In this document: positions 622 to 30,298 of the stretch, piece by piece | Layout of the letters: each line of letters opens with the position of its first letter | Numbering within the stretch: position 1 is the first letter of the stretch | Source of the DNA: a virus | DNA length: 64,000 bases | Virus record (IMG/VR): IMGVR_UViG_3300030328_004798 | Span: 5,543 to 69,542 of that record | Direction: 5' to 3' (one strand) | The notes under the pieces: model-generated | Told to the model about the DNA's origin: nothing | Seen by the model: only the letters and a program-made list of their open reading frames with translations | The model's database searches: none | Translations under genes and position numbers: made by a program

Positions 622-1608
622 ATGGCAAAAAAATCATTAATGCAAGAAAGAATAGTTTATAAACCTTTTGAATATCCAAAAGCTTTTGACTTTTATATGA
701 AACAACAACAAGCACATTGGCTTTGGACTGAGGTACCTATGATGGCAGATGTAAATGATTGGAAACAAAATTTAACAGAAACAGAAAAAAATATTATTGG
801 TTCTATTTTAAAAGGGTTTGCTCAAACAGAAACTGTAGTAAATGATTATTGGTCTACTTTGGTTACAAAATGGTTTAGAAAACCAGAGGTTATAGCTATG
901 GCTGTTACTTTTGGTTGTTTTGAAACTATTCATGCTGAAGCTTATTCTTTATTAAATGAAGAATTAGGTTTAGATGATTTTGCTGAATTTTTAGAAGATG
1001 AAACAACAATGGCTAAAATAGAAAATTTAATGAATGTTAGAGATGATCATGAGGGTAATCCTGATTGGCATGAAAGAGCTAAATCTTTAGCTATATTTTC
1101 TGCATTTACAGAAGGTGTAAATTTATTTTCATCATTTGCTGTTTTATTGTCATTTAAATTAAGAAATTTACTTAAAGGTGTTGGGCAAATAGTAGAATGG
1201 AGTATTAGAGATGAATCATTACACTCAGAAGCAGGTTGTTGGTTATTTAGAACTTTACTTAAAGAACATCCTGAATTAGATACACCTGAATTAAAAACTC
1301 AAGTTGAGGAAGCAGCTAGATTATCTTTAAAGTTAGAATTAGATTTTATAGATAAAGTTTATGAAATGGGTGATTTAGAAGGATGTTCTAAATATGATTT
1401 AGTTTCATTTATAAAACATAGAGTAAATACTAAAATGGGTGATTTAGGATATGAACCTATTGTAAATGGTATTGACCAAGAAGCAGTACAAAGAATGAGT
1501 TGGTTTGATAGTTTATCAGCTGGAAAACAACACACAGATTTCTTTGCAAACAGAGTTACAAATTATTCAAAAGGAGTCCAAAATTGGGATTCATCAGCAT
1601 TATTTTAA
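622..1608 (+). CDS. nrdB: Ribonucleotide reductase class I beta subunit
   Basis: Di-iron ligand motifs ETIHAEAY, EGVNLFSSF, RDESLH; C-terminal HTDFFANRVTNYSK. Confidence 0.95.
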   Translation: MAKKSLMQERIVYKPFEYPKAFDFYMKQQQAHWLWTEVPMMADVNDWKQNLTETEKNIIGSILKGFAQTETVVNDYWSTLVTKWFRKPEVIAMAVTFGCFETIHAEAYSLLNEELGLDDFAEFLEDETTMAKIENLMNVRDDHEGNPDWHERAKSLAIFSAFTEGVNLFSSFAVLLSFKLRNLLKGVGQIVEWSIRDESLHSEAGCWLFRTLLKEHPELDTPELKTQVEEAARLSLKLELDFIDKVYEMGDLEGCSKYDLVSFIKHRVNTKMGDLGYEPIVNGIDQEAVQRMSWFDSLSAGKQHTDFFANRVTNYSKGVQNWDSSALF

Positions 1609-1609
1609 T

Positions 1610-1753
1610 ATGAGTGTAGTAGAAGAAGGAATATTAGTTTTAACTGTTTTAGGTACAATAATGGCCATGTTAATTGGTTCATTAGGTAATAAAGAAAAAG
1701 TAGGCTGTCAAAGCTTAAATTGTAAATGTAAATGTAAAAAAAATGGAAAATAA
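1610..1753 (+). CDS. Small membrane protein with Cys-rich tail (47 aa) between nrdB and nrdA
   Basis: ATG 1 nt after nrdB stop; hydrophobic N-half, tail CQSLNCKCKCKK; overlaps nrdA start (track ORF 1505 start is unlikely). Confidence 0.5.
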   Translation: MSVVEEGILVLTVLGTIMAMLIGSLGNKEKVGCQSLNCKCKCKKNGK

Positions 1754-3458
1754 CGCATTACAAGTAGATTATAGTGATTGGGAAGCAGGAAAAAATTATC
1801 CTGAATGGATGGATGAGATTTCATTAGCAACAATATCTAAGGGTTACCTTCTCCCAGGTGAAGACGTAAAAAAAGCGTATAGAAGAGTTGCTAAAGCAGC
1901 TGCATTTAGACTTAAAAAACCAGAAATGGAAGCTAAATTCTATAAAATAATATGGAATGGTTGGCTTGGATTAGCATCTCCTGTTATCTCTAATATGGGT
2001 ACAGATAGAGGCTTACCTATTTCTTGTTATGGTATTGATACTCCTGATTCAATTAGGGGAATAGGATTAACAAATGCTGAATTAATGAGATTAACTTCTA
2101 AAGGTGGTGGTGTTGGGATTGGTGTATCTCGTATTAGACCTAGAGGTACAGAAATAGCAGGTAATGGTAAATCTGAAGGTGTTGTTCCTTGGTGTAAAAT
2201 TTATGATTCTTCTATTATAGCAACAAATCAAGGTAATGTGAGAAGAGGGGCTGCATCAGTCAATTTAGATATTGAACATCCAGATATAGATGAATTTTTA
2301 CAAATAAGAAGACCAAAAGGGGATCCTAATAGACAATGCTTAAATTTACATCAATGTGTAGTTGTAGGAGATAATTTTATGCGTAAATTAGAAGCTAGAG
2401 AACCAGAAACGTTAAATACTTGGGCAACTATACTTAAAGCTAGAATGGAAACAGGAGAGCCTTATGTAATGTATAAAGATAATGTTAATAAAGATAACCC
2501 AATAGCATATAGGTTAAATAATTTAGAAGTTACTATGACTAATATATGCTCTGAGATTACATTATTTACAGATGAAGAACACTCATTTATTTGTTGTTTA
2601 TCTTCTTTAAATTTAGCTAAATATGAAGAATGGAAGGATACAGACACAGTTGAATTAGCAACTTGGTTTTTAGATGGTGTAATGCAAGAATTTATAGATA
2701 AATCTAATGGTAAAGATTCATTAAGAAGAACTCATTATCATGCTAAAAAAGGTAGAGCATTAGGTTTAGGTGTAATGGGTTGGCATACATTTTTACAACA
2801 AAAAGGACTACCATTTAATTCTATAGCTTCTACAGCACATACTCATAATATATTTTCTGATATAAGAAATAAAGCAGAAAAAGCATCAATGGAATTAGCT
2901 GTTGAGTATGGAGAACCTATGTGGTGTAGAGGAACAGGTATGAGAAATACTCATTTACTTGCTGTTGCTCCAACAGTCTCTAATTCTGTTATAACAGGTG
3001 GGATATCAGCTGGTATTGAACCCTTACCTGGGAATGTTTATACTTTTAATGGTGCTAAAGGTACTTTTATTAGAAAAAATAAAGTATTAGAAGCCTTACT
3101 GGAAGAAAAAAAGCAAAATAAAAATAAATGGTGGGAACAAATGTTACAAGATGGTGGATCAGTACAAAATCTCCCAGATAGTGTATTAACCCCTGATGAA
3201 AAAGAATTATTTTTAACGTTTTCTGAAATAAACCAATTAGAACTTGTACGACAAGCCGCGATAAGACAAAGATATATTGACCAAACTCAATCTCTGAATT
3301 TATCATTTGACCCCAATGATTCACCAAAATGGATAAATCAAGTACATATGGAAGCGTGGAAGCTTGGGATAAAAACACTCTATTATTTAAGAACTGACAG
3401 TGTGATAAAAGGTGATCTTGGCTCAAGAATGGCAGATTGTGTGAGTTGTGACGGGTAG
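1743..3458 (+). CDS. nrdA: Ribonucleotide reductase class I alpha subunit (short, no evident ATP-cone)
   Basis: LPISC, TNICSEI active site, APTVSNS, KTLYYLRT, C-terminal CVSCDG. Confidence 0.95.
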   Translation: MENNALQVDYSDWEAGKNYPEWMDEISLATISKGYLLPGEDVKKAYRRVAKAAAFRLKKPEMEAKFYKIIWNGWLGLASPVISNMGTDRGLPISCYGIDTPDSIRGIGLTNAELMRLTSKGGGVGIGVSRIRPRGTEIAGNGKSEGVVPWCKIYDSSIIATNQGNVRRGAASVNLDIEHPDIDEFLQIRRPKGDPNRQCLNLHQCVVVGDNFMRKLEAREPETLNTWATILKARMETGEPYVMYKDNVNKDNPIAYRLNNLEVTMTNICSEITLFTDEEHSFICCLSSLNLAKYEEWKDTDTVELATWFLDGVMQEFIDKSNGKDSLRRTHYHAKKGRALGLGVMGWHTFLQQKGLPFNSIASTAHTHNIFSDIRNKAEKASMELAVEYGEPMWCRGTGMRNTHLLAVAPTVSNSVITGGISAGIEPLPGNVYTFNGAKGTFIRKNKVLEALLEEKKQNKNKWWEQMLQDGGSVQNLPDSVLTPDEKELFLTFSEINQLELVRQAAIRQRYIDQTQSLNLSFDPNDSPKWINQVHMEAWKLGIKTLYYLRTDSVIKGDLGSRMADCVSCDG

Positions 3459-3841: not shown

Positions 3842-6547
3842 ATGAAAAAATTATTATTATGGTTATGCTTAGCCTTACCTTTTATAGGCATATCCCAAAC
3901 ATATTCTGATACTCCAACTATTTTTAGAAGTAAACTTACAAATGCTATAGAATTAGGTACTATACCAGAAGATATAAGCATGTACATTATTTTTGATAAA
4001 TCAACAATAACAGCAACTACTGGAAATGTTAACCCAGCTTATTCTGAAATTGCTTTAGATGATGATGATGGGAATGGTATTTGGAGACAAGAAATTTATC
4101 TAGATATAACAGATCCATCTACTGATTTATATTTTGTTTATAAAATAGTAGATTCTGATGGTACAGAATATTATGAAGACACAGCGGAGTGTTTATTTTT
4201 AGGAACTGATTATGGTTTTACTGATGGTAGAGCAAGAAAATTAATACCTAGTGAAATCCCAGGAGATGGACAAGTTAAATTCTGTTGGGATACTTGTGAA
4301 TGGCAATGTCCTCCTCTTCCTTGTGAAACAGGATTAACAAATCCATCAGCAGACCAAACATGTATAAATGGTGGTCAAGCTATTATTTATTTTTCATGGG
4401 AAACAGAATGTGAGGTACAATCAGTAATTTACTCAAATGCTGAAGGAGCAGGTCCATTTGAATACCAAGTAAACCCAGATGCAGAACTTTTTGGTGTTTA
4501 TGCAGGGTATGGTCAAATGCCACCTAATTGGAGTGTAGAACATTATTTACAAGTAAAATTTACTGATGATTCTTTATCTGAAGAAATAGTTTATACTCCT
4601 GAACCTTGTATAGAAGGATGTACTGATCCAAATCAAGAATCTTATAATCCTTGGGCTACTATAGATGATGGTTCTTGTTCAGGGACAACTTGTGATACTG
4701 ATACACAATATCAAATTACAATGGAAATTACATTTGATAATTGGCCTAATGAAATTAGTTGGATTATGAATAGTGGTGGAATTATTGGAGAAGTTCCAAC
4801 TGGAGAATATGATTATAATGATATTGGGCAAACTTATACCTACAATTTCTGTATTGACCAAGATGCAGGATTTGAACTTATTGTAAATGATACTTATGGA
4901 GATGGTCTAGCTGGATCAACTTCAGGTGGTAGTTTAGATGGAGAAATAATAATATATGATTGTAATGGTGATATAATTTGGGAAATGGAAGACCCAGATT
5001 TCGGATCTACTTTATACTCAGGTCAACAGTTTGGTATACAATGTGAAGTAACAGAAGAAATTTATGGGTGTACAGACCCAGCTTATCAAGAATATAATCC
5101 TGATGCTAATATTGATGATGGTTCATGTGAAACATTACACATTATAGGATGTATGGATGAAAATTCAATTAATTATAATCCTGATGCTACATTACAAGAA
5201 ATAATACCAACATGTGATTATAACTTAATCTTAAAAGATGCCGCAGGAGATGGATGGGGTAATTCTTTTATAGGTATTACTCAAAATGATGTATCATTAG
5301 GAACTTATACAATGGGTCCTGGTTCACCAGAACAAGTATTTCCTTTAACCTTATCTTCATCACACTCAGTAAAAGTATATTATTTCCAAGTAGGTGGTCC
5401 ACAATCAACACCAGAAGAAGTACAATTCCAAACCTGGCATAATTCATTCTTAATAGAAGGATTAGATGGAGAAATATTAATAAGTGAAGGAGAAAACCCA
5501 TTTGAAAATAATGGTCAAGGTGCACTACAAAACTTTGAATCCCCATTCTTTATAACTTATGAAGCAATGCCATATTGTGGAGATGTTTGTATTCCAATAG
5601 TTGAAGGATGTATGACTGAAGGTTCTTTAAATTATAACCCAGATGCAAATGTAGATGATGGATCTTGTATACCTATTATCTATGGTTGTATGAATGAATT
5701 TGCATTCAATTATAACCCAGAAGCAACTGTTGATGATGGTTCTTGTGAAGATGAAATAGTAGGATGTATGGATCCAGCAGCATTCAATTATAACCCAGAT
5801 GCTAATACTCCTGGAGATTGTATTCCAGTTGTTGAAGGCTGTATGAATGAATTAGCATTTAACTATAATCCTAGTGCTAATGTAGATGATGGTTCTTGTG
5901 TACCTGTTATTTATGGTTGTACTGACCCTACAGCATTTAATTATAATGTAGATGCTAACACAGATAATGGTTCTTGTGTAGAAGTTGTTTATGGTTGTAC
6001 AGATCCAGATTCTGTTAATTATAATCCACTAGCTAATACTGATAATGGAAGTTGTATAACACCAATTGTTGGTTGTACAGATCCAAATTCTTATAATTAT
6101 GATCCTGACGCTAATGTATCAGATCCAGATGCTTGTTTATATGATGCAGGTTGTATTACTGGACCTGGTGAACCGTATTGGTTAAATAATAACTGTTACG
6201 CTTGGGTAATTGATGTAGATAATTATTGCTGTGATAATGATTGGGATCCAGTATGTCAAGAAATGTATAATTACTGTGAAAATGGGTGGCCTGATGGAAT
6301 TGATATAAATGGAAGATTCAATAGATTTAGTGGTATAATTGTTTATCCAAACCCATCTGCCAATATAATTAATATAAATTCAAATGGTTTAGACATAACA
6401 TACTCAGTTTTTGATGCGACAGGAAGAATCGTAATTGAAAATTCAAATAAAAACCAAATCGATCTATCAAATGTAGAATCAGGAGTTTATTTACTTACTG
6501 TTACTTATGAAGGTCAAACATTTAATAAAAAAATAATAAAACAATAA
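3842..6547 (+). CDS. Secreted acidic Cys-repeat protein with T9SS type A C-terminal sorting domain
   Basis: Sec signal MKKLLLWLCLALPFIGISQ; ten GC(T/M)xxxxxxYNPxAxxDxGSC-type repeats; C-terminus IVYPNPS...SGVYLLTV...KKIIKQ. Confidence 0.85.
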   Translation: MKKLLLWLCLALPFIGISQTYSDTPTIFRSKLTNAIELGTIPEDISMYIIFDKSTITATTGNVNPAYSEIALDDDDGNGIWRQEIYLDITDPSTDLYFVYKIVDSDGTEYYEDTAECLFLGTDYGFTDGRARKLIPSEIPGDGQVKFCWDTCEWQCPPLPCETGLTNPSADQTCINGGQAIIYFSWETECEVQSVIYSNAEGAGPFEYQVNPDAELFGVYAGYGQMPPNWSVEHYLQVKFTDDSLSEEIVYTPEPCIEGCTDPNQESYNPWATIDDGSCSGTTCDTDTQYQITMEITFDNWPNEISWIMNSGGIIGEVPTGEYDYNDIGQTYTYNFCIDQDAGFELIVNDTYGDGLAGSTSGGSLDGEIIIYDCNGDIIWEMEDPDFGSTLYSGQQFGIQCEVTEEIYGCTDPAYQEYNPDANIDDGSCETLHIIGCMDENSINYNPDATLQEIIPTCDYNLILKDAAGDGWGNSFIGITQNDVSLGTYTMGPGSPEQVFPLTLSSSHSVKVYYFQVGGPQSTPEEVQFQTWHNSFLIEGLDGEILISEGENPFENNGQGALQNFESPFFITYEAMPYCGDVCIPIVEGCMTEGSLNYNPDANVDDGSCIPIIYGCMNEFAFNYNPEATVDDGSCEDEIVGCMDPAAFNYNPDANTPGDCIPVVEGCMNELAFNYNPSANVDDGSCVPVIYGCTDPTAFNYNVDANTDNGSCVEVVYGCTDPDSVNYNPLANTDNGSCITPIVGCTDPNSYNYDPDANVSDPDACLYDAGCITGPGEPYWLNNNCYAWVIDVDNYCCDNDWDPVCQEMYNYCENGWPDGIDINGRFNRFSGIIVYPNPSANIININSNGLDITYSVFDATGRIVIENSNKNQIDLSNVESGVYLLTVTYEGQTFNKKIIKQ
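5600..6140 (+). repeat. Seven tandem ~26-aa Cys/Asp repeats within the T9SS cargo gene (approximate bounds)
   Basis: e.g. GCMTEGSLNYNPDANVDDGSC, GCTDPTAFNYNVDANTDNGSC. Confidence 0.85.
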
Positions 6548-10590: not shown

Positions 10591-10621
10591 TTTGGAATAG
10601 CAAAAAAAATTTCGTATATTA
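10591..10621 (+). promoter_or_regulatory. TTTGG-N15-TTCGTATATTA promoter upstream of the deazaguanine operon
   Basis: Matches the recurring fixed-spacing motif. Confidence 0.75.
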
Positions 10622-10638
10622 CCCCAAATAAAAGTTAT

Positions 10639-11136
10639 ATGTTCAACCCTCCTTTATCTAGGAATACAGTAAAAAGACGTCTAAAGAATTATCAAAAGCT
10701 AAATTATAATCAATTTAGATGGTGGAGATGGTATGAATCAAAAAACAAACCATTACCCTACAAAGCTAGCTTTCGTGATAAAATTTTAAATGGTGATTTT
10801 GACCAATCTCCCTTTATGTTACAAGCTTATTTATGTGAACATATGATGAATGATATATTAGCTGAATGTGATGAGGATTATCAAAAATTCCTAGAAAAGT
10901 CTAAATTATTAGGAGCTAGAAGAAAAAGATTACTAGAAGATTATGAAAAAGATGAATTTAATAAACTAGATACTATTTATAATTTATTTATAAGAAATTT
11001 TGATATTACAAGAGAACAAGTAGAAAAAGAAGCTTTAGAATGCTGTGGAGAATTAATTGATCTTTATTATATTATAGAAGAAAAATATAGAAAAAAACAT
11101 TATGTCTCTAAAAGGGGACGACCTAGAAAAATATGA
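10639..11136 (+). CDS. Hypothetical protein
   Basis: 165-aa ORF after promoter and AAAAGTTATATG start context. Confidence 0.75.
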   Translation: MFNPPLSRNTVKRRLKNYQKLNYNQFRWWRWYESKNKPLPYKASFRDKILNGDFDQSPFMLQAYLCEHMMNDILAECDEDYQKFLEKSKLLGARRKRLLEDYEKDEFNKLDTIYNLFIRNFDITREQVEKEALECCGELIDLYYIIEEKYRKKHYVSKRGRPRKI

Positions 11137-11945
11137 AAATAAGTCACGAAGTACCAAAAAGTTTACTAAATGAATCTCTTAATTTTAATGATTATGACTA
11201 TTGTTTACCCCATTTATTAGATGAGGATAAAGAATATAGAGAATTTTTTGAATATTCTAAAAAACAAGGACGTTATATTATTATGGATAATTCGCTTCAT
11301 GAATTAGGAGAAGCATACGACCATAAAAGATTATTACATTGGGTTAATAAATTAGAACCAAATGAATTTATTGTGCCTGATGTTTGGATGCAAGGACATA
11401 TGACGGCAGCTCAAGCTAAATATTGGAAACAATTTGAATACCCAGAAAACACAAAAATAACAGCTGTAATACAAGGTAAAGATAAAAATGATGCATATTT
11501 ATGTGCTAATTTATTACATAACTTAGGTTATAATAAATTATGTGTATCATATGGAGCAACATGGTACAATGATTTCTTCCCTCACACTAACCCAGATATG
11601 GGTAAAGCATTAGGTAGAATTAGATTTGTACAAGGATTATTAGCTTTAGACCATTTAAAAAATGTTAAATATCATTTATTAGGATGTTCTATACCTCAAG
11701 AATTTGGTTGGTATGATAATCATCCTCAAATAGAATCAATAGATACTTCTAACCCAATAATGGCTGGAATAGATAGACATACGTATACAGAACAAGGATT
11801 AACAATTAAACCTAAGGCTAATATGAATAATCATTTTAATAAAAAATTAAGTGATAATATAGAAATGAGTATAGCCAAAAATATAGGTAAATTTAGAAAA
11901 ATAAATGGATTTAGACCCTATCCAAAACATACTGGGTCATTTTAA
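11133..11945 (+). CDS. TGT/DpdA-like guanine transglycosylase (putative 7-deazaguanine insertion enzyme)
   Basis: IIMDNS, YHLLG, ESIDTS resemble the TGT/DpdA DSG, HxxG and DSS motifs; immediately upstream of queC. Confidence 0.6.
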   Translation: MKISHEVPKSLLNESLNFNDYDYCLPHLLDEDKEYREFFEYSKKQGRYIIMDNSLHELGEAYDHKRLLHWVNKLEPNEFIVPDVWMQGHMTAAQAKYWKQFEYPENTKITAVIQGKDKNDAYLCANLLHNLGYNKLCVSYGATWYNDFFPHTNPDMGKALGRIRFVQGLLALDHLKNVKYHLLGCSIPQEFGWYDNHPQIESIDTSNPIMAGIDRHTYTEQGLTIKPKANMNNHFNKKLSDNIEMSIAKNIGKFRKINGFRPYPKHTGSF

Positions 11946-11957
11946 TATTTTTTAATT

Positions 11958-12752
11958 ATGAATAAACATGCAATTGTTTCGCTAAGTGGAGGAATGGATA
12001 GTTCTACACTTTTACTTAGAGCGATATCTGAGTATGATACAGTTACTGCAATATCATTTGACTATGGTCAAAAGCATAGAGTTGAACTTGAAAGAGCAAA
12101 ATCATTAATTACTTATCTAAATATGGAAGGTCATAAGGTAACCTATGAGCAAATTAAATTAGATGGTTTAGTGGATTTGTTAAATTCTGCTTTAGTAGAA
12201 GGGGGAGATGATGTCCCAGAAGGACACTATGAACAAGATAATATGAAAGAAACAGTAGTACCTAACAGAAATAAAATGTTTGCGTCTATTACACAGGCGG
12301 TTGCTTTATCTAAAGCAAATGCCACAAAAGAGCAAGTTGATATTTGTTTAGGAATACATGCTGGTGATCATGCAATTTATCCTGATTGTAGACAAGAATT
12401 TAGAGACGCTGATGATGCAGCATTTAGAATTGGAAATTGGGATGCAGATAGAGTAGGTTATTTTACACCTTATCTTGATACTGATAAATTAGGTATTCTT
12501 CAAAATGGAGAATATTTATGTGGGGTATTAAATGTTGAATTTGACGAAGTTTATTCTAGAACTAATACTAGTTATAAGCCTTATTCTAGTGGGAACAGTG
12601 ATTATAAATCTGCTTCATCTGTTGAAAGAATTGAAGCGTTTATTGCTCTGGGTCGTCCGGATCCTGTTCAATATGAAGATGAAACGGGTCCAGTAGATTG
12701 GGAAGTAGCTAGAGATTCAGTAGCTAAAGTATTAGCTGATTATTCAGCTTAA
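11958..12752 (+). CDS. queC: 7-cyano-7-deazaguanine (preQ0) synthase
   Basis: SLSGGMDSSTL, FDYGQKH, VVPNRN, HAIYPDCR. Confidence 0.93.
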   Translation: MNKHAIVSLSGGMDSSTLLLRAISEYDTVTAISFDYGQKHRVELERAKSLITYLNMEGHKVTYEQIKLDGLVDLLNSALVEGGDDVPEGHYEQDNMKETVVPNRNKMFASITQAVALSKANATKEQVDICLGIHAGDHAIYPDCRQEFRDADDAAFRIGNWDADRVGYFTPYLDTDKLGILQNGEYLCGVLNVEFDEVYSRTNTSYKPYSSGNSDYKSASSVERIEAFIALGRPDPVQYEDETGPVDWEVARDSVAKVLADYSA

Positions 12753-12758
12753 TATATT

Positions 12759-12831
12759 TGGCTCGTAGTGTAATTGGCAACACGTCTGGTTTTGGTCCAG
12801 AAGAGTCTAGGTTCGACCCCTAGCGAGCCAA
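12759..12831 (+). tRNA. tRNA-Gln (TTG)
   Basis: Acceptor TGGCTCG/CGAGCCA, D-stem GTGT/ACAC, anticodon arm TCTGG-TTTTGGT-CCAGA, T-arm CTAGG-TTCGACC-CCTAG; no encoded CCA. Confidence 0.92.
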
Positions 12832-12844
12832 CAAATAGTAATGT

Positions 12845-13042
12845 ATGAAAAAATTTTTTGAATTTTTATTAATTTGGATAAGTCAAAACCTAGCTATCCC
12901 TTTTTGGATTGTAGGTCATGTACATCTTTCAATTCATAATTTTCATGATTTAGTAGAAATTTTTTCATCTATTGGTATGAATATAGTTGTAGGAATAGGA
13001 TTTCTTATTGACTACAAAAACAGTTTAAAAATAAAAAAATAA
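12845..13042 (+). CDS. Small membrane protein
   Basis: 65 aa, hydrophobic. Confidence 0.65.
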   Translation: MKKFFEFLLIWISQNLAIPFWIVGHVHLSIHNFHDLVEIFSSIGMNIVVGIGFLIDYKNSLKIKK

Positions 13043-13045
13043 ATT

Positions 13046-13207
13046 ATGTTACAAGATTTACCAGATGCGTATTGGCATCAAAAAATAAGTTTTTTAAAAT
13101 CAGCTATAAGAATAGTTGGATACGGACTTTTACTTTATTCCTTGCCTATTGCAGTAGGAGTTCTTATATTTAGTGAAGCAATTGGTATAATGGAAGAATT
13201 AGTTTAA
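13046..13207 (+). CDS. Small membrane protein (53 aa, not in ORF track)
   Basis: MLQDLPDAYWHQKISFLKSAIRIVG...AIGIMEELV fills the gap tightly. Confidence 0.7.
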   Translation: MLQDLPDAYWHQKISFLKSAIRIVGYGLLLYSLPIAVGVLIFSEAIGIMEELV

Positions 13208-13209
13208 TT

Positions 13210-13458
13210 ATGAATATTATTTTATATTTTACAGCAGCATGGTGTGGTCCTTGTAAAGCACTAGCTCCAAGAATGGAAAAATTAAAAGGACAAATTAACT
13301 ATAGAAAAATTGATATTGATCAAAATCAAGAAATGTCAATGAAATATGGTGTAAGAAGTGTTCCTAGTTTGGTTTTAGTTAATCAAAACGGAGAAGAGAT
13401 AAGACGTATGGTTGGTCTCCAATCAGACGATAAAATTTTAAATTTTTATAATGGGTAA
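13210..13458 (+). CDS. Thioredoxin
   Basis: WCGPC active site; VRSVPSL. Confidence 0.92.
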   Translation: MNIILYFTAAWCGPCKALAPRMEKLKGQINYRKIDIDQNQEMSMKYGVRSVPSLVLVNQNGEEIRRMVGLQSDDKILNFYNG

Positions 13459-13915
13459 ATTTCAATCAAGTAAAGTATTTGACGGATTTAGTACAGTGTT
13501 TCGTCAATGGAAAGCTGAAGGTACACACTGTAGATTTGTACACGGTTATGGAATATCTTTTAAAGTATATTTTGAAGGAGAATTAGATCATAGAAATTGG
13601 GTATGGGATTTTGGAGGAATGAAAAGAGCTAAAACTCTGATAGATGGAAAACAACCTAAAGCATGGATGGACTATATGTTTGATCATACTTTAATTGTAG
13701 CAGAAGATGATCCTGAAGTAAAAGCATTTCAACAAATGGATGCTGTAGGAGTAGCTCAAGTAAGAGTAATGGAAGCTACTGGCGCTGAAAAATTTGCTGA
13801 ATATATTTATAATAAGCTTAATGAATTTGTTAAGACTGAAACTGATAATAGAGTTAGAGTTACAAAAGTAAAATTCATGGAGCATGGTAAAAACGCTGCT
13901 TATTATAGCGAATAA
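13451..13915 (+). CDS. queD: 6-carboxytetrahydropterin synthase
   Basis: HCRFVHGY, WVWDFG, FDHT, GAEKFA; que-cluster context. Confidence 0.88.
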   Translation: MGKFQSSKVFDGFSTVFRQWKAEGTHCRFVHGYGISFKVYFEGELDHRNWVWDFGGMKRAKTLIDGKQPKAWMDYMFDHTLIVAEDDPEVKAFQQMDAVGVAQVRVMEATGAEKFAEYIYNKLNEFVKTETDNRVRVTKVKFMEHGKNAAYYSE

Positions 13916-13959
13916 ATAGGTTATTAGTGAATGAAAAACCACTCTAAAAAATTAACAAT

Positions 13960-14742
13960 ATGCACAAACAATTAAAAAGGATAGAAGACTATCAAAAAAC
14001 ACTGGGTGTATTAGAATTATATACAGCCGTACAATCAGAAGGTAGCAGACAAGGTTACCCAACAATCGTAGTTAGAACATCAGGATGCACACATAGATGC
14101 TACTTTGGAGAAGGTGGATGGTGTGATTCTTGGTATACAAGTATTCACCCAGAAAAAGGTACTTACTGTTTCCAAGATATTATAGACATGTATGATAATA
14201 ATCCCCATATTAAAGAAATGATGTTAACTGGGGGTTCTCCAACTATGCATCCAAAATTAGTTAATGAATTAACACACTTTGCACATGAAAGAGATATATT
14301 CATTACTATCGAAACTGAAGGATCTCATTTTTTACCTACCGATTATCCTATTAATTTACTTAGTATTAGTCCCAAGTTTAGTAATTCTGTTCCTGTTATT
14401 GGTGCCAAAACACCTCAGGGAGCTATTGTAGACGAAAGAATGGTAAAAAAACACAATTCAAAAAGACTAAACATTGAAGCAATATTACAATCAATTGAAT
14501 ATCATGATGATTATCACATAAAACCAGTTTTGGATAATAAATTATCTATGGTTAGTGAAGTAGAAGAATTCTTGAAAAAATGTAATATACCAGATCATAA
14601 AGTTTGGGCTATGCCTGCTGGTGATGATAGAGAATCTTTATTTGAAAGTTATGGTCCTGTTATGAATTTTGTAAGAGATAGAGGTTGGAGATATACAGGA
14701 CGTTCCCATATTATGGCTTTTAATACAGAACGTTGTGTCTAG
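13960..14742 (+). CDS. queE: 7-carboxy-7-deazaguanine synthase (radical SAM)
   Basis: QSEG, RTSGCTHRC...WCDS, LTGGSP, IETEG, ISPK. Confidence 0.9.
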   Translation: MHKQLKRIEDYQKTLGVLELYTAVQSEGSRQGYPTIVVRTSGCTHRCYFGEGGWCDSWYTSIHPEKGTYCFQDIIDMYDNNPHIKEMMLTGGSPTMHPKLVNELTHFAHERDIFITIETEGSHFLPTDYPINLLSISPKFSNSVPVIGAKTPQGAIVDERMVKKHNSKRLNIEAILQSIEYHDDYHIKPVLDNKLSMVSEVEEFLKKCNIPDHKVWAMPAGDDRESLFESYGPVMNFVRDRGWRYTGRSHIMAFNTERCV

Positions 14743-14869
14743 AGAAGAAGCACTAGAGATATTAGAGGAAATTGAAGAAAATGTTGGGGTTTGTTGCGCT
14801 ATTACAATGGAACCAGACGAAGTATTAGTATTAATAGATAAATTAAAAAGTTATTTAGAAAATGAGTAG
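14735..14869 (+). CDS. Small acidic protein (44 aa, GTG start, not in track)
   Basis: VSREEALEILEEIEENVGVCC...; overlaps queE stop and folE start. Confidence 0.5.
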   Translation: MSREEALEILEEIEENVGVCCAITMEPDEVLVLIDKLKSYLENE

Positions 14870-15551
14870 AAAAAAACAACACACGGATTTAGAGGTAGTA
14901 CAAAAAGGATTTGCAAATGGAGTTTCTCCTAACTTTCCATTAAATGATAAACAAAAGGAGAAAATGATTAAAAAAGCTACTAAAGCTTATGCTAGATTTT
15001 TAGAAGCATTAGAATGTGATTGGCAAAATGATCCTAATTCATCAGATACACCTCATAGAGTAGCTAAAGCTTATGTTAATGATTTATGGGCTGGAAGATA
15101 TACACAAATGTCTCCAATTACATCATTTCCATCAGATGGTTATGATGGTATTGTAATTGAACGAAATATTCCATTAACATCAATGTGTTCTCATCATCAC
15201 CAAACAATTGGAGGTGTAGTTCATATTGGATATGTTGTTGGTGATAATGGTAGAGTAATTGGATTATCTAAGTTAAATAGAATAGTAGAATTGTTTGGAA
15301 GGAGAGGAGCAATTCAAGAACAACTTACATCAGCAATTCATAATGCTGTAGATAAAATTTGTGAAAATAATAAAGGTGTTATTGTTTCTATTGTAGGAAC
15401 ACATAATTGTGTAAGTTGTAGAGGGGTTAAACATCAAGGTGCTGCTATGGTTACAACAAAAGCGTCAGGTGTATTTAGAGATAATGATAATTTAGCAAGA
15501 AAGGAATTTTTTGATTCACTAAAAATAAATAACGGAGGACACAATATATAG
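14862..15551 (+). CDS. folE: GTP cyclohydrolase I
   Basis: DTPHRVAK, SMCSHH, GLSKLNR, QEQLT, HNCVSCRG. Confidence 0.95.
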   Translation: MSRKKQHTDLEVVQKGFANGVSPNFPLNDKQKEKMIKKATKAYARFLEALECDWQNDPNSSDTPHRVAKAYVNDLWAGRYTQMSPITSFPSDGYDGIVIERNIPLTSMCSHHHQTIGGVVHIGYVVGDNGRVIGLSKLNRIVELFGRRGAIQEQLTSAIHNAVDKICENNKGVIVSIVGTHNCVSCRGVKHQGAAMVTTKASGVFRDNDNLARKEFFDSLKINNGGHNI

Positions 15552-15553
15552 TT

Positions 15554-16033
15554 ATGTTAAAATTAGAAAATAAAATTTATATAAGCTGGGATGATGTAAA
15601 AAGAGATGTAGAAACACTATGTACAAAAATCTTTATGGATTACCCAAATATAGATTCAGTAATGGGGTTACCAAGAGGAGGTTTAATCCCAGCAGTATTA
15701 GTTTCCCATGAATTAGGATTACCTTGGACGATGCAACCAGGTAGAAATACTTTAGTTATTGATGATATTAATGATACAGGACATACTTTAAATGATGCAC
15801 CTGGAGTTTATCATGCTGTACTTCACCATAAACCAACTTCTAAATTTAAACCAAATTTATATGCTAGAGAAGTAGGAGAAGAATGGTTAGTTTATCCGTG
15901 GGAAAGATCAGATTCAAAAGCTCTACCAGATTATTTAAAACAGGTTGAGCATCTGAGTGATTCTCATTATATTGGTGGTCTAACAATGCCCAAAGGTGCC
16001 AAAACACCTTGGTGGAAAAAAATGAGTAAATAA
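15554..16033 (+). CDS. Type I phosphoribosyltransferase, xanthine/guanine PRTase (Gpt)-like
   Basis: PRGGLIPAV, PRPP-binding loop VIDDINDTGHT, WLVYPWE. Confidence 0.85.
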   Translation: MLKLENKIYISWDDVKRDVETLCTKIFMDYPNIDSVMGLPRGGLIPAVLVSHELGLPWTMQPGRNTLVIDDINDTGHTLNDAPGVYHAVLHHKPTSKFKPNLYAREVGEEWLVYPWERSDSKALPDYLKQVEHLSDSHYIGGLTMPKGAKTPWWKKMSK

Positions 16034-16584
16034 TGGGAAAACAATTAGAATTTGCGTATCAATGGGAAAAATTAAAAGATGTCCCATTTGTAAATGAAGT
16101 AGAACAATTTAATGCCACATTTGGCAAACCAAATAATTATGAACCGACAATACCAGAAAAAAAGGAATGGCAATTCGTATACGACTTTGTACTTGAAGAA
16201 TTGGAAGAATATAGACAGGCTTGCGAAAACGGAGACATCGTGGAAGTTTTGGATGCTTTGTGCGATATTGCTTACGTTTCCCTTGGGAACGGCACTATGT
16301 TACATGGTCTTAAAGATAAGATATGGCCAGCCTATCAAGAAGTACAAGGAAGCAATATGTCGAAGTCTTGCAGCACTGAAGAAGAAGCCATGGAAACTGT
16401 CTCCCTCCGCTCTAAAGAACAAGCTGAGTCATGTCACTATGAGAAAGTGGGGGAGAGATTCGTAGTATATAGAACACGTGATAGAAAAGTAATGAAATCT
16501 ATCAACTATTACAAACCAGATCTGTCTCAATTTTTTACAGATGATGAGTTAGAAAAATTTTACGAAGTTGAAGTGATTGACTAA
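16033..16584 (+). CDS. MazG/HisE-like all-alpha NTP pyrophosphohydrolase
   Basis: EELEEY...VEVLDALCD, EVQGSNMSK, KVMKSINY. Confidence 0.85.
   Translation: MGKQLEFAYQWEKLKDVPFVNEVEQFNATFGKPNNYEPTIPEKKEWQFVYDFVLEELEEYRQACENGDIVEVLDALCDIAYVSLGNGTMLHGLKDKIWPAYQEVQGSNMSKSCSTEEEAMETVSLRSKEQAESCHYEKVGERFVVYRTRDRKVMKSINYYKPDLSQFFTDDELEKFYEVEVID
16112..16465 (+). CDS. Possible overprinted +1-frame membrane protein inside the MazG-like gene
   Basis: 117 stop-free codons; host-frame codons avoid NTA+purine; one TM segment. Confidence 0.4.
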   Translation: MPHLANQIIMNRQYQKKRNGNSYTTLYLKNWKNIDRLAKTETSWKFWMLCAILLTFPLGTALCYMVLKIRYGQPIKKYKEAICRSLAALKKKPWKLSPSALKNKLSHVTMRKWGRDS

Positions 16585-18326
16585 TGTATAAAAAATGTTA
16601 TCAAGGGAAAAAATTAGGAAGTAATATTTTTGAAATGCACCTTTGGGAAGAGGAAGGTGGTCATCAAATTATTCCTTATGAAAATATAGCATATCAAGAA
16701 TGTGAGGAAGAAGAACACTCTAATATTGGATTAAATGGTGAATATTTAAAACCTACTGATAATTGGTTTTTTTCTAAAAATCCTGATTATAAGCACAAAA
16801 ATACTCCTGGTCTTCATTTTCACGATATGAAACTTCATCAAAAGTTTTTAGTTGAAAGATATGGAACCAATGATATACCTTCTACAGGTCATAGAGAAAT
16901 ATTTTTTGATATTGAGTGTGAAATTGGAGGAGCCTTAACAGAAGATTATATAGAAAGTGCTCCTATGCCTATTACTTCAATTGCTTGGTGGGATAAAACA
17001 CCTGATACTTGGCATATTCTAATTTTAGATAAAAAGAATCAATTAAAACATACTAAGGCAAAAAATAAGGAAATTATACCTTGTAGAACAGAAAATGAGT
17101 TATTAGCTAAATTTATCGAAAAAATTAGAGACATAGATCCTGACATTTTAATAGGATACAACTCAGATTATTTTGATATACCTTATTTATACTATAGAAT
17201 GTGTAATACAATAGGTAAAGAATTTGCTGATCATTTATCACCTTTAGGTAAAGTAGAGTCAAAGAAATTTTCTAAATTTTTCTATAAACGAAATCAATAT
17301 GTAGATATTATAGGAGTTGAATCCCTTGATTATATTCGTTTACATAAAAAATACAGTTGGAAAGATGAACCTAGCTGGAAATTAGATGCTATTGGAGAGA
17401 AATATGTTGGAATGAAAAAGGTTGAATACGAGGGTAATTTAGATCAACTATTTGAAACTGATATCCATAAATTTATTCAATATAACTTTGTTGATGTTGA
17501 GATATTAAAAAAATTAGACGAAAAATTACAATATATTGCTTTAACTAAAAATCTATCACATAAAGGCAAACATAATTATAGTGAAGTTTATTCTAATAGT
17601 GTTACCCAAGATGGAGCAATTTCAGCTTACCTATTATCTCAAAATATAATACCCCCACCCAAAGAACCTAATCCCCAAAAGAAAGATGGTTATGCTGGAG
17701 GATATCTTTTTTGCCCTAAAGCAGGATTATACAAGTATATGTTTGATGAAGATTTAACATCATTGTATCCATCTATAATTATGTCAATTAACATAGGTAA
17801 AGAAACATTTATGGGGCGTATTATAGATGCAGATGACCGTAATAATAGATTGGGTCTTAACGATTTAAAAGAACGTGATCCTAAAGAGGAATTATTAATA
17901 GAAAACTCAAAACGAAAACAAACTTATGTAAATGTTGATAGGTTAATTACTATGATTGAACAAAATAATTTAGCTGTAGCAGCTAATGGCTCATTGTTTA
18001 GAACAGATAAAGAATCAGTATTATCAACAATACTTAAAAAATGGTTTGATGAAAGAGTTGTTTATAAAAATGCTATGAAAAAAGCATTTAAATCAGGTGA
18101 TAAAGAAAAAGGTGAATATAATTATTTGATGCAATATACATTTAAAATTTTGCTTAATAGTTTATATGGTGCAACAGCATTACCTTCATTTAGATATGGA
18201 ATGAATTTATCTATATTAAGTGAAGCAATTACTTTATCAGGACATAGAATAATACAAGAATCAGCTTTATGTGCTAATAGACACATGAATAAAGTTATGA
18301 AAGGTAAATTAAAATTAAATTTATAA
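16584..18326 (+). CDS. Family B DNA polymerase, N-terminal subunit (3'-5' exonuclease plus motifs A and B)
   Basis: FFDIE, GYNSDYFDIPY, YNFVDV; DEDLTSLYPSII; KILLNSLYG; no motif C. Confidence 0.92.
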   Translation: MYKKCYQGKKLGSNIFEMHLWEEEGGHQIIPYENIAYQECEEEEHSNIGLNGEYLKPTDNWFFSKNPDYKHKNTPGLHFHDMKLHQKFLVERYGTNDIPSTGHREIFFDIECEIGGALTEDYIESAPMPITSIAWWDKTPDTWHILILDKKNQLKHTKAKNKEIIPCRTENELLAKFIEKIRDIDPDILIGYNSDYFDIPYLYYRMCNTIGKEFADHLSPLGKVESKKFSKFFYKRNQYVDIIGVESLDYIRLHKKYSWKDEPSWKLDAIGEKYVGMKKVEYEGNLDQLFETDIHKFIQYNFVDVEILKKLDEKLQYIALTKNLSHKGKHNYSEVYSNSVTQDGAISAYLLSQNIIPPPKEPNPQKKDGYAGGYLFCPKAGLYKYMFDEDLTSLYPSIIMSINIGKETFMGRIIDADDRNNRLGLNDLKERDPKEELLIENSKRKQTYVNVDRLITMIEQNNLAVAANGSLFRTDKESVLSTILKKWFDERVVYKNAMKKAFKSGDKEKGEYNYLMQYTFKILLNSLYGATALPSFRYGMNLSILSEAITLSGHRIIQESALCANRHMNKVMKGKLKLNL

Positions 18327-18329
18327 AAT

Positions 18330-18623
18330 ATGACAGATCTTTTAATAGGATTAGGTTTATTACCTATATTAATTTTAGTTAATTATGTAGTTTTAACATT
18401 ATGTAAGTTTTTTCCTAAATATATTTTAGCATTAAGTGGTGTAATGATTGGATTAGATACAATTATGACTTTAGGTTATACATTTACAGCTAATATATTT
18501 GTAACTGAAATTAAATTAATGGTTGGTGGAGTTGGTTTAGCTATATTTGCTGCGTTAGCACATAAAGTTTTAACCTTTATAAAAGAATTAGGTGCATTAA
18601 ATAAACATGAAATAGGTAATTAA
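18330..18623 (+). CDS. Three-TM membrane protein between polymerase halves
   Basis: 97 aa hydrophobic; starts 3 nt after the pol-N stop. Confidence 0.7.
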   Translation: MTDLLIGLGLLPILILVNYVVLTLCKFFPKYILALSGVMIGLDTIMTLGYTFTANIFVTEIKLMVGGVGLAIFAALAHKVLTFIKELGALNKHEIGN

Positions 18624-18624
18624 T

Positions 18625-18888
18625 ATGGCTTTAAAAAAACAATCTATAAGAAAAAATATGAATATTTTGGTTAATGGTGTAGAATTATCCAAAGAAGAAT
18701 TAATATTAATAAGTGAAGAATGGAACGAAACACAAGAAGCATTTTTTAAAAAAATGTTAAAACAAGGAGGACATTTTAGACTTAAAGGAATTAAATATGA
18801 AGTTGAATTAATAAAAGATAGTAGGACTAGATCAGATGGGACTAAAGATGGAGGTGTAATTCAAATCCCAGGAGATACGCAATTTTAA
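18625..18888 (+). CDS. Hypothetical protein between polymerase halves
   Basis: 87 aa, 1-nt spacing to both neighbours. Confidence 0.75.
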   Translation: MALKKQSIRKNMNILVNGVELSKEELILISEEWNETQEAFFKKMLKQGGHFRLKGIKYEVELIKDSRTRSDGTKDGGVIQIPGDTQF

Positions 18889-18889
18889 T

Positions 18890-19825
18890 ATGAAACATTT
18901 AGAAGAAACACCTTGGTTTATTTGTGATAAAGGAGATAATAATTATTGTGCCTATGTGGACACTGATTCAAACTACTTTAACGCTGAACCTATACTTTTA
19001 CATTTATATCCTAATTTTGAAGAATTATCTGATGAGGAAAAAGATAGTAAACTGGAAAAAGTTGCTTTGGCCTATCAAGATATTATATCTGAAGATTATG
19101 ATAGGTTAGCTGAGGAATGTTTTAATGTTAAGTCACATAGACTTGAGATGAAGACTGAATGTGTAATTAGATCAGCTTATTTTAGAGCTACTAGAAGATA
19201 TGCTCAATGGATAACTAAACAGGAGGGTATTCCTAAAGAAGTTCTAGATATTAAAGGATTGGAATTTATGAAAGCTAATTTTCCACCTATTTTAGGAGAA
19301 TTCTTTAATGATATATTACAACAGGTATTGAAAGGAGAAGAAAAAGCTAGTATAATTACTCAAATTAAAGAATTTAAAAAAGAAATATTAGGGGGTAAAA
19401 TTTCATTAGCTAAATTAGGTAATCCAACAGCAGTAAAAAAATTAGAAAAATATTCCGGTACTAAAGCAAGAGCAGGAGAAATATTTACTGAAATACTTAA
19501 AGGTGCTCCTGCGCCCGTAAGAGCTGCTATTCGTTATAATGATTTATTAAAATTATGGAATTTAGATAGAAAACATAATTTAATTACAATGGCTGATAAA
19601 GTAAAATGGATTTACTTAAAAGATAACCCATATAAAATAGAGGCATTAGCATTTTTTGATTATGATATTCCTGAAAAAGTTCAAGATTTCTTAGATACTT
19701 ACGCAGATAGGCAAAAAGTATTTGATTCAATATTATTAAATAAATTAGAAGGATTTTTTAGTGATTTACAATGGTCATTAGACTTAAATCCTTATACAAA
19801 TGCCTTAAGTTCCTTTGAAATCTAA
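18890..19825 (+). CDS. Family B DNA polymerase, C-terminal subunit (motif C plus thumb)
   Basis: YVDTDS, RRYA, IKGLE. Confidence 0.92.
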   Translation: MKHLEETPWFICDKGDNNYCAYVDTDSNYFNAEPILLHLYPNFEELSDEEKDSKLEKVALAYQDIISEDYDRLAEECFNVKSHRLEMKTECVIRSAYFRATRRYAQWITKQEGIPKEVLDIKGLEFMKANFPPILGEFFNDILQQVLKGEEKASIITQIKEFKKEILGGKISLAKLGNPTAVKKLEKYSGTKARAGEIFTEILKGAPAPVRAAIRYNDLLKLWNLDRKHNLITMADKVKWIYLKDNPYKIEALAFFDYDIPEKVQDFLDTYADRQKVFDSILLNKLEGFFSDLQWSLDLNPYTNALSSFEI

Positions 19826-19848
19826 GATAAAATTCGTATATTACAGCT

Positions 19849-25302: not shown

Positions 25303-25526
25303 ATACACAAGTATATAAATTCTTGAAATCCGAAGCTGAGGCGGATAAAAATAAAGCTCTAGCAAGTATAGAATTATTAACTAACCACCCTGCAGGAATT
25401 GGTGATCATTCAACTAAAGATTATTGGGATAACTGTAATGAAGCAATTAAATTATTAGCATCAGCAGATGAAAGGTTAGAAACATTAGAAAAATACTTTA
25501 ATTCTAAAGAACAAGTAAATGGGTGA
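25299..25526 (+). CDS. Hypothetical phage protein
   Basis: 75 aa with HPAGIGDH motif. Confidence 0.75.
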   Translation: MNTQVYKFLKSEAEADKNKALASIELLTNHPAGIGDHSTKDYWDNCNEAIKLLASADERLETLEKYFNSKEQVNG

Positions 25527-30297: not shown

Positions 30298-30298
30298 T

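Follow-up and report, generated by a model that had tools for sequence, protein, structure and literature searches.

The viral DNA analyzed here (the window; 64,000 nucleotides, bases 5543–69542 of the 69,542-bp IMG/VR viral contig IMGVR_UViG_3300030328_004798) contains at 10639–19825 a run of genes in which the enzymes of 7-deazaguanine synthesis are combined with a homologue of the guanine transglycosylase DpdA3, a small Gpt-type purine phosphoribosyltransferase (PRTase), a MazG-like nucleoside triphosphate (NTP) pyrophosphohydrolase and a split DNA polymerase. The run lies in the early/replication module of a marine phage that is uncultured and large (∼160 kb). Our comparative analysis revealed a new association: in at least five lineages, phage deazaguanine pathways are specifically accompanied by the mini Gpt-type PRTase. 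As to the function of the system, we estimate a probability of about 0.5 that it performs DpdA3-type deazaguanine modification of DNA, with the base being inserted post-replicatively and the PRTase recycling guanine. The positions and family names given to the genes of this run in an initial annotation of the window, made from the letters alone, were borne out by the open reading frame (ORF) list, Pfam and PHROGs.

The ORF at 11133..11945 (+ strand) encodes a 270-aa guanine transglycosylase homologue with no Pfam match that belongs, as judged from sequence comparison, to the published DpdA3 family (phrog_19058, E 3.9e-43). A tblastn search of 50,697 phage records yielded 25 matches; the founding DpdA3 proteins of CP220/CPt10 (38% identity), immuto (37%, annotated as DpdA) and phiST (22%, CGPG_00065) were matched over 88–96% of the query at E values from 1e-7 to 1e-42. 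An AlphaFold2 model built from an alignment of 96 diverse relatives (predicted local distance difference test score, pLDDT, 95.2) has the TIM-barrel fold of TGT and DpdA enzymes. With this model as a query, Foldseek placed TGT structures on top, included the DpdA structure 7UI4 (E 8.9e-6) among its matches and returned a probability of 1.00 for both, while VIA-align gave tied Z values of 17.2 for ArcTGT, 16.9 for bacterial TGT and 16.6 for 7UI4 (residues 1–262 of the model, ∼232 aligned residues, root mean square deviation 3.1–3.4 Å). The fold and family check that had been suggested for this ORF therefore ended in DpdA3 by sequence and in a TGT barrel by model, and the family membership agrees with the initial view that the 7-deazaguanine system is of a type associated with extensive replacement of G. 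Indeed, deoxyguanosine was reported to be undetectable in phiST, CP220 and immuto, i.e. G is completely replaced, and insertion by DpdA3 after replication was proposed by the same authors (Hutinet 2023, PMC10516641, in the sections at hand).

Three Asp residues of the DpdA3 homologue (D52, D83 and D204), located in barrel-end motifs, are invariant among the 96 aligned sequences and may include the catalytic Asp pair of the TGT superfamily. No Cys is invariant or nearly so in this alignment, and the protein therefore lacks a TGT-type Zn site. The D52 motif falls in an hhalign comparison on the Asp-Ser-Gly motif of the DpdA from Pseudomonas phage JG054, at merely 13% probability, and the DpdA3 profile matches 7UI4 with an E value of 0.15, a sequence similarity near noise. 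The protein is a bare 270-aa barrel of neutral pI (7.2) without the Zn subdomain or extra domains, as compared to 355–577 aa in the TGT and DpdA targets. Relatives are numerous in the metagenome protein collection (3271 at E≤1e-5, forming 1616 clusters at 50% identity), two of them being fused to a formyltransferase. Apparent fusions to GIY-YIG/NUMOD domains (P0126 and P0144), considered as functional clues, were discarded and taken as adjacent homing-endonuclease genes.

Immediately 5′ of the DpdA3 gene, and joined to it by an ATGA overlap, is orf165 (10639..11136, +), a part of the conserved block that is absent from the initial annotation. It encodes a conserved protein without a Pfam family, which has a C-terminal AT-hook whose core (RGRP) is present in 26 of 26 distinct orthologues; no other ORF of the window carries the motif. 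This ORF appears to be translationally coupled to DpdA3 throughout the clade of related marine phages, to which it is specific, being absent near DpdA3 in other lineages. A complex prediction for the two proteins scored 0.00 and gave no verdict.

The genes for deazaguanine synthesis follow within 3.6 kb 3′ of the DpdA3 gene, an arrangement kept in related loci. They encode FolE (GTP cyclohydrolase IA; 14862..15551, +; Pfam GTP_cyclohydroI, E 1.5e-42), QueD (6-carboxytetrahydropterin (CPH4) synthase; 13451..13915, +; Pfam PTPS, E 1.5e-14; phrog_2389, E 3.6e-40), QueE (7-carboxy-7-deazaguanine (CDG) synthase of the radical S-adenosylmethionine (SAM) type; 13960..14742, +; phrog_2076, E 1.6e-46, under the Pfam radical-SAM cut-off; 70% identical to the QueE of immuto) and a QueC-like ATP-dependent CDG amidase/nitrile synthase (11958..12752, +; Pfam QueC, E 1.4e-38). 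The latter aligns over residues 3–172 with the solved QueC 2PG3 (E 8e-21). In this protein and its orthologues from the clade the C-terminal four-Cys cluster of the JG054 QueC domain is replaced in the alignment, and a 35-residue C-terminal extension is present, so that its chemistry may be altered (amide vs nitrile). In 11 distinct related loci the place of FolE is taken by the unrelated FolE2/GCYH-IB (PF02649, E 1.3e-70), as for example in L013:8982-10001, where its gene is immediately 5′ of, and overlaps, the PRTase gene. Neither the window, nor the 69.5-kb contig, nor three large relatives (G001, G007 and G006; 85%, 97% and 100% complete) yielded a queF, and no formyltransferase was found in G001, G002 or the contig itself. 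Because QueF and the formyltransferase were not found in the relatives, the predicted base is at the level of CDG, of 7-amido-7-deazaguanine (ADG) or of 7-cyano-7-deazaguanine (preQ0), in agreement with the preQ0-level or ADG base anticipated initially.

The PRTase gene (15554..16033, +) directly follows folE. Its product is recognized by Pfam Pribosyltran (PF00156; 29.3 bits at a cut-off of 26.3) and phrog_8995, and its profile gave 54 PDB matches, nearly all of them 6-oxopurine PRTases, including end-to-end alignments with 1VDM from P. horikoshii (4.6e-21), xanthine PRTases (∼1e-19) and E. coli xanthine-guanine phosphoribosyltransferase (XGPRT; 1A95, 7.5e-18). Residues R41-G42-G43 of the pyrophosphate (PPi) loop, D70-D71, D74 and T78 of the phosphoribosyl pyrophosphate (PRPP) motif (DDxxDTG..T) and a base-stacking Trp are invariant in six lineages, and the third Asp of DDxxD, a Lys-Pro and the W..PW motif align with those of XGPRT. 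We take the retained Asp, Lys-Pro and Trp to correspond to the contacts with N7, O6 and the ring, respectively, in guanine/xanthine PRTases. These features class the protein as a Gpt/XGPRT-type type I PRTase at the sequence level. Its 35-residue C-terminal tail aligns with the first (N-terminal) helix of the GTP cyclohydrolase I (GCH-I) domain of JG054, and this FolE-like tail is likely a trace of a PRTase-FolE fusion. No longer, fused form was found among relatives of the window protein by a word-based search, which makes this weak evidence.

The phylogenetic distribution of the PRTase is narrow, homologues being detected in only 35 of the 50,697 phage records. The co-occurrence check with que genes proposed in the initial annotation had a strikingly positive outcome. 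Twenty of these records are shared with those of DpdA3, and two are other contigs of the DpdA3 phage IBB_35; one is Campylobacter phage CC_R7, without a DpdA3 match in tblastn, and one a 4-kb faecal contig. Two belong to Brevundimonas phages, one of which (StAshley) was inspected, and nine to Pseudomonas, Stenotrophomonas or Variovorax phages with the match within or at folE (eight annotated as GTP cyclohydrolase and one in an unannotated record). Viewed from the other side, 22 of the 25 DpdA3 records come from phages with the PRTase, the exceptions being CJLB-14, Chryseobacterium MA9V-3 and Weizmannia Youna2.

StAshley encodes QueC, QueD, QueE, FolE and the PRTase along with a polymerase, a ribonucleotide reductase (RNR) and a deoxynucleoside monophosphate (dNMP) kinase. 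Its ORF 00090 (L115:6975-7775, 266 aa, annotated as hypothetical, just 5′ of the polymerase) is assigned to the DpdA3 family by profile comparison (hhalign 97.5%, E 7.7e-12), and hence this phage looks like a further deazaguanine phage that was missed by tblastn. In JG054 (Pseudomonas, Queuovirinae), the only one of the nine folE-matching records in which the fusion was inspected, a 297-aa “FolE” (L007:5893-6786) consists of a PRTase domain (residues 1–∼117) followed by a GCH-I domain (118–296). The PRTase domain is 29% identical to the window PRTase (E 3e-12) with an intact PRPP motif, and the fusion gene stands between QueD and an ordinary DpdA, with Gat-QueC upstream. The association with GTP cyclohydrolase extends to the marine clade, where the PRTase gene is less than 150 nt from a FolE or FolE2 gene in 77 of 84 distinct loci and keeps its place beside the cyclohydrolase where FolE2 replaces FolE; it also adjoins FolE in immuto and StAshley. 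Some relatives appeared to lack the PRTase (FolE being followed directly by MazG), but a divergent PRTase-like ORF was found in 5 of 5 such records. Our literature search with DpdA and phosphoribosyltransferase returned no phage paper and none describing a link between a PRTase and GTP cyclohydrolase, and the text at hand of Hutinet 2023 (PMC10516641), supplementary data aside, and of the other key papers contains no mention of a phosphoribosyltransferase.

The conservation of the whole block was assessed in 178 loci (140 distinct) collected by three IMG/VR scans with the PRTase, MazG and DpdA3 as anchors; these loci are close kin of one clade rather than independent lineages, L038 and L104 being immuto-like. 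The shared gene order is orf373, orf165, DpdA3, QueC, (tRNA), thioredoxin (Trx), QueD, QueE, FolE, PRTase, MazG, PolB-N, a variable insert, PolB-C, clamp and GroES/EL. QueD/QueE and the PRTase are present in all 45 distinct loci that extend at least 8 kb 5′ of MazG, and DpdA3 in 44 of these; the PRTase is likewise present in 72 of 72 loci that have both QueE and MazG. A PRTase-MazG-polymerase block without que genes, named in the initial annotation as an observation that would speak against its proposal, was seen in none of these closely related loci.

The two genes that follow the PRTase were expected in the initial annotation to be dedicated parts of the system, a view that the comparison did not support. 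The MazG-like protein (16033..16584, +; Pfam PRA-PH, E 5.2e-10, 40.1 bits at a cut-off of 21.3; phrog_671, E 2.7e-28), which has a conserved C-terminal extension, is 76% identical to immuto_63, and its E55, E56, E59, E71, D74 and D78, presumably metal ligands, are invariant among 21 sequences. Neither its sequence nor its profile matched a solved structure at E up to 10, apart from unrelated chains, and its AlphaFold2 model is poor (pLDDT 61, predicted template modelling score 0.35). The family is widespread, with 233 phage records (including 72 from Flavobacterium, 34 Escherichia, 27 Microbacterium and 21 Polaribacter). QueE itself was detectable by tblastn, at the limited sensitivity of this search, in 87 phage records, among them four Flavobacterium, three Escherichia and two Microbacterium. 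Since, for example, 72 Flavobacterium records of the MazG-like family compare with four that have a detectable QueE, the family is not specific to deazaguanine phages.

The polymerase genes encode the N-terminal subunit of a family B DNA polymerase with the exonuclease and palm motifs A and B (16584..18326, +; Pfam DNA_pol_B_exo1 and DNA_pol_B; phrog_262, E 4e-111; phrog_2062) and the C-terminal subunit from motif C onward, including the thumb (18890..19825, +; phrog_262 positions 565–843, E 1.8e-43; phrog_1918). The two halves cover positions 26–567 and 565–843 of phrog_262, i.e. a single PolB profile is split over two ORFs, and they are separate in all 75 related loci showing both, at a distance of 0 to 4287 nt; in L103 they abut via an ATGA overlap. 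The replicase of immuto is a PolA, and the ordinary DpdA cluster of JG054, presumably of the partial-modification type, also abuts a PolB. For these two reasons the adjacency of a polymerase is uninformative with respect to pre-replicative incorporation, and the polymerase cannot be regarded as the conserved partner proposed initially. In the window the halves are separated by two ORFs without a family (18330..18888, +; 97 aa, hydrophobic, at 18330-18623, and 87 aa at 18625-18888), and this variable site appears to be an insertion hot spot. Homologues of the 87-aa ORF (orf87) are present in most related loci and, in more distant relatives, also between DpdA3 and QueC, as if mobile.

In the reading that we favour, post-replicative modification with guanine recycling, FolE, QueD, QueE and the divergent QueC would convert GTP to a 7-deazaguanine base at the CDG/ADG/preQ0 level, and DpdA3 would exchange this base for guanine in the phage DNA, probably at most or all G, since such replacement has been measured in phiST, CP220 and immuto, which also have DpdA3. 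The PRTase would most likely turn the released guanine (one per exchange) into GMP, thereby removing a competitor of the exchange and returning purine to the GTP pool used by FolE. Free guanine would be expected to compete in such exchanges, judging from TGT chemistry, and a full exchange would set free ∼46,000 guanines per genome copy (160 kb, 29% G+C). A guanine sink would matter most where replacement is complete, because guanine is both the competitor and the raw material for more deazaguanine. A role of the PRTase in guanine metabolism is suggested by its link to the first, GTP-consuming enzyme of the pathway and by its fusion to this enzyme in JG054, whose DpdA is of the ordinary type and which has no obvious use for a deaza-nucleotide. 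The AT-hook protein may help DpdA3 to work on AT-rich DNA, and the MazG-like enzyme, given its apparently intact active-site residues, may sanitise or bias the guanine-nucleotide pool, whereas the split PolB is probably the phage replicase that merely adjoins the cluster. The clade shows no sign of a dedicated nucleotide route: a DNMK-type dNMP kinase was found in none of the three large relatives (G001, G007 and G006), and the AAA_28 kinase-like protein discussed below is missing from the 97%-complete relative. A thymidylate-kinase search of the contig matched only the clamp-loader P-loop. Activation of preQ0 by the PRTase, as preferred in the initial annotation, fits these data worse than the guanine salvage it had offered as an alternative, considering the FolE fusion beside an ordinary DpdA and the retained Asp, Lys and Trp. 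Overall, the evidence favours (though it falls short of proving) guanine removal and recycling over the synthesis of a deaza-nucleotide. The analysis demonstrates gene identities, a TGT fold, synteny and co-occurrence; the substrates of DpdA3, the PRTase and MazG, how much G is replaced and the post-replicative timing are inferred.

A number of observations pull in the opposite direction. Complete base replacement in other phages is usually made through the nucleotide pool. The DpdA3 clusters of four lineages all contain nucleotide (pyro)phosphohydrolases (PRA-PH in the window and immuto, PF03819 MazG in phiST, and HD plus a kinase in CP220), and small P-loop kinase-like proteins are encoded beside DpdA3 in phiST (AAA_18; L003:8478-8957), CP220 (AAA_28 and an HD-kinase fusion; L002:13868-16361) and immuto (AAA_28; L001:13478-14002), two of them being annotated as “thymidylate kinase” yet scoring below the Pfam family cut-off. 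In phiST and StAshley the PRTase is beside a dNMP-kinase-like gene and RNR. The catalytic activity of the window PRTase is itself not assured from its sequence, as it is devoid, like the immuto and JG054 forms, of the ∼30-residue hairpin/mobile loop of Gpt enzymes (its residues 55 to 64 match residues 49 to 84 of the 1VDM chain, with a ∼30-column gap against the StAshley and phiST forms), and it is the fastest-evolving enzyme of the block (median identity of 57% vs 82–85% for MazG, FolE and QueD). The activity of DpdA3 on DNA has never been demonstrated, the E. coli tests of its authors having failed (PMC10516641, in the sections at hand). Finally, TubE, an enzyme of the same fold and annotation, is described as CDG-specific and is encoded beside FolE/QueD/QueE-type enzymes and a nucleotide hydrolase (PMC6112128, as far as the text at hand goes), and because of this specificity the sequence class of the PRTase alone does not fix its substrate.

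DpdA3 phages, the marine clade among them, might instead replace G at the level of the nucleotide pool, with or without an additional exchange on completed DNA, a proposition that in both of its variants taken together we consider unlikely, if by no means far-fetched. One variant, close to the pre-replicative route put forward in the initial annotation, would have a TubE/ToyH-like PRTase couple the deazaguanine base to PRPP, kinases and RNR convert the product to the dNTP, MazG destroy dGTP and the polymerase incorporate the analogue; DpdA3 would then just clear away the remaining G or serve a different purpose. We rate this variant as distinctly improbable. The comparative data lend this route no support, although it has a precedent in a PRTase taking CDG and DpdA3 activity was never reconstituted. 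In particular, TubE is a purine-type, CDG-specific PRTase clustered with GCH-I, CPH4 synthase, a radical-SAM CDG synthase and a nucleotide hydrolase (PMC6112128, text at hand), and toyocamycin clusters also hold a PF00156 enzyme (bioRxiv 10.64898/2026.04.15.718813, text at hand). The 100% replacement in DpdA3 phages and the deazaguanine nucleoside which, according to a citation in Hutinet 2023 (PMC10516641, in the sections at hand), was found in the cytoplasm of cells infected by CP220 would also be in line with it, and so would the adjacency of the PRTase to a dNMP-kinase-like gene and RNR in phiST and to FolE, dNMP kinase and RNR in StAshley, the invariant active-site acids of the MazG-like enzyme and the RNR encoded in the window itself (622..3458). 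On the other hand, the universally conserved DpdA3 would have no necessary task in this route, and JG054, a phage with an ordinary DpdA, carries this PRTase domain as a fusion with FolE. Moreover, the PRTase keeps the Asp aligned with that of guanine/xanthine PRTases (presumably facing N7), the DNMK-type kinase was not found in any of the three large relatives, members of the MazG family are frequent in phages in which no que genes are detectable, and the polymerase family differs between the window and immuto.

In the other variant, to which we assign a lower likelihood still, the MazG-like enzyme (in CP220, the HD protein) would hydrolyze dGTP to dGMP, DpdA3 would swap the base on the free deoxynucleotide, a kinase would re-phosphorylate the product and the PRTase would recycle guanine. 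Such a scheme provides a role for every recurrent companion (hydrolase, DpdA3, the P-loop kinase of phiST, CP220 and immuto, and PRTase), its logic parallels that of the dCTPase, dCMP hydroxymethylase and dNMP kinase of T4, and it would suit a bare 270-aa barrel of pI 7.2 lacking a Zn subdomain or extra domains. To our knowledge, however, no TGT-family enzyme acts on free nucleotides, and the AT-hook DNA-binding protein coupled to DpdA3 in the clade speaks against the scheme, the DpdA3-formyltransferase fusions of some relatives being neutral in this respect. That DNA modification by DpdA3 could not be demonstrated in E. coli (PMC10516641, in the sections at hand) would again be consistent with the exchange on nucleotides. 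Also against it, the marine-clade AAA_28 homologue (30% identical to that of immuto) is encoded near the terminase and not near DpdA3; it is missing from the 97%-complete relative, and 89 Streptomyces phage records contain it. For these reasons a small P-loop kinase was rejected as an obligatory part of the system. The least probable of the readings considered is that the PRTase-like protein is a non-catalytic ligand sensor (e.g. of PRPP or a guanine nucleotide) or a scaffold partner of GTP cyclohydrolase I. Some PRTase-fold proteins do act as regulators, and the loss of the ∼30-residue hairpin/flexible loop in the window, immuto and JG054 forms, the fusion to FolE in JG054 and the FolE-like tail of the window protein, the close adjacency to FolE or FolE2 (77 of 84 loci) and the fast divergence could all be explained in this way. 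The invariance of the PPi loop (RGG), the PRPP motif and the base-stacking Trp across six lineages argues for catalysis, as do the StAshley, phiST and CP220 forms, which retain part or all of the loop region.

With respect to its layout, the run is tightly packed, and the TAATG stop/start overlaps noted initially at both the PRTase/MazG and MazG/PolB junctions are present in the sequence. Its co-directionality is likewise real but not special, as nearly all genes of the window are on the + strand (of the 78 ORFs listed with a length of 90 aa or more, just three are encoded on the minus strand). The other members of the run are a tRNA-Gln (TTG) found by a tRNA search (12759..12832, +), two small hydrophobic ORFs of 65 and 53 aa with no Pfam or PHROG match (12845..13207, +), a thioredoxin (13210..13458, +; Pfam Thioredoxin, E 1.3e-18) and a 44-aa ORF without a family match that bridges queE and folE (14735..14869, +). 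The single promoter proposed for the run was not confirmed: a sigma-70 promoter scan was at chance level (83 sites vs 79.5 expected), and the bracketing of the run by a repeated 12-mer is only suggestive. This 12-mer, TTCGTATATTAC, is located at 10611..10622 (+), 16 nt 5′ of the first ORF of the run, with a second copy right after the run (19833-19844) and one further copy with one mismatch at 23457. These three matches to TTCGTATATTAC (one with a mismatch) compare with 0.70 expected, and at least three were reached in 5 of 100 shuffles; the element is possibly a promoter or regulatory element.

The contig is 43% complete according to CheckV. Besides the run, the window encodes a class I ribonucleotide reductase with small and large subunits (622..3458, +; phrog_86, E 4.9e-80; phrog_84, E 6e-156), the end of a DnaB-type helicase, a clamp loader, GroES/GroEL and an ATP-dependent ligase. 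The host is probably a member of Bacteroidota, as suggested by a 901-aa protein with a C-terminal type IX secretion sorting domain (3842-6547; domain E 3.3e-14), by the low G+C content of the window (∼29%) and by its tRNA-Gln, which shares 92% identity with that of Cellulophaga phages over 49 nt. Several further features were observed. A 17-kb block at 27117-45091 contains glycosyltransferases, 4–5 sugar-nucleotide epimerase/dehydratases, two aminotransferases, a carbamoyltransferase and a split transketolase-like pair, a sugar pathway unusual for a phage whose candidate targets are the host surface, the virion or DNA. Within the replication module, a 149-aa ORF (25519-25968) with DUF1599 (“nucleotide modification associated domain 1”, E 3.5e-8) adjoins a PD-(D/E)XK nuclease. 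An 82-aa ORF at 54822-55070 has a PC4 (transcriptional coactivator p15) single-stranded DNA-binding domain (E 1.4e-16). The only stretch of the window with a negative GC skew, 58000-60000, contains a minus-strand tRNA-Met (59213-59286) and a minus-strand 135-aa ORF. In the relative G001 the large terminase (L113:6294-9056) is 920 aa long as compared to 522 aa in G002 and has a weak match to a Hint domain, which possibly reflects an intein.

The marine clade is very abundant. Given the abundance of the DpdA3 family, genomes in which deazaguanine fully replaces G may be widespread in marine phages; such genomes bear on the evasion of restriction and CRISPR as well as on sequencing and PCR bias in viromes. 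The PRTase link offers a handle on how DpdA3 phages reach 100% replacement, as compared to 0.1–30% for other DpdA enzymes. A guanine sink and a nucleotide-level route differ in their predictions, and these are open to a check in immuto and phiST, both of which are in culture. If true, the pool-level reading would be the first case in nature of a 7-deazapurine genome made through the nucleotide pool, and the published view of post-replicative insertion would be overturned.

Among the known systems, the closest to the present one are those of immuto, phiST and CP220, all three of which have a homologous DpdA3 (37%, 22% and 38% identity, respectively) next to FolE, QueD and QueE, together with a homologous PRTase. 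The resemblance to immuto extends to the MazG-like enzyme (76% identity), QueE (70%) and the presence of GroES/GroEL. Unlike in immuto, neither QueF nor a formyltransferase was found in the clade, and for this reason the base is not expected to be the formyl-preQ1 of that phage; a query with the DpdL-like decarboxylase of phiST gave no match in the related loci. Other differences from the DpdA3 founders are the AT-hook ORF coupled to DpdA3 and a QueC without the Cys cluster, and the marine system is known here from genes alone. With the DpdA of 7UI4, phage DpdA1 and DpdA2, and TGT, the window DpdA3 shares the same TIM-barrel core, being ∼100–300 residues shorter. The window PRTase shares with Gpt-type PRTases (1A95, 1VDM and S. 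solfataricus Gpt; E 1e-17 to 5e-21) the PPi loop, the PRPP motif with its third Asp, the Lys-Pro and the W..PW motif, and differs from them by the absence of the ∼30-residue hairpin, the 35-residue FolE-like tail and the linkage to deazaguanine genes.

Pool-level replacement is known for the hydroxymethyl-dC of T4 and for 2-aminoadenine phages with their MazZ, PurZ and DatZ enzymes. With these systems, as we understand them, the phage cluster has in common an NTP pyrophosphohydrolase next to the replicase and a probably complete replacement, and it differs in that its predicted enzymes include none shown to make a modified dNTP. A likeness by description and gene neighbourhood is also seen with TubE and ToyH, where a PF00156 purine-type PRTase is found beside GCH-I, QueD-type and QueE-type enzymes and a nucleotide hydrolase (PMC6112128, text at hand). 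Unlike the phage cluster, the clusters of TubE and ToyH (for tubercidin and toyocamycin) include no transglycosylase and make free nucleosides. Overall, the cluster type described here was already known from DpdA3 systems, and it is the link between the PRTase and GTP cyclohydrolase I that was previously unremarked.

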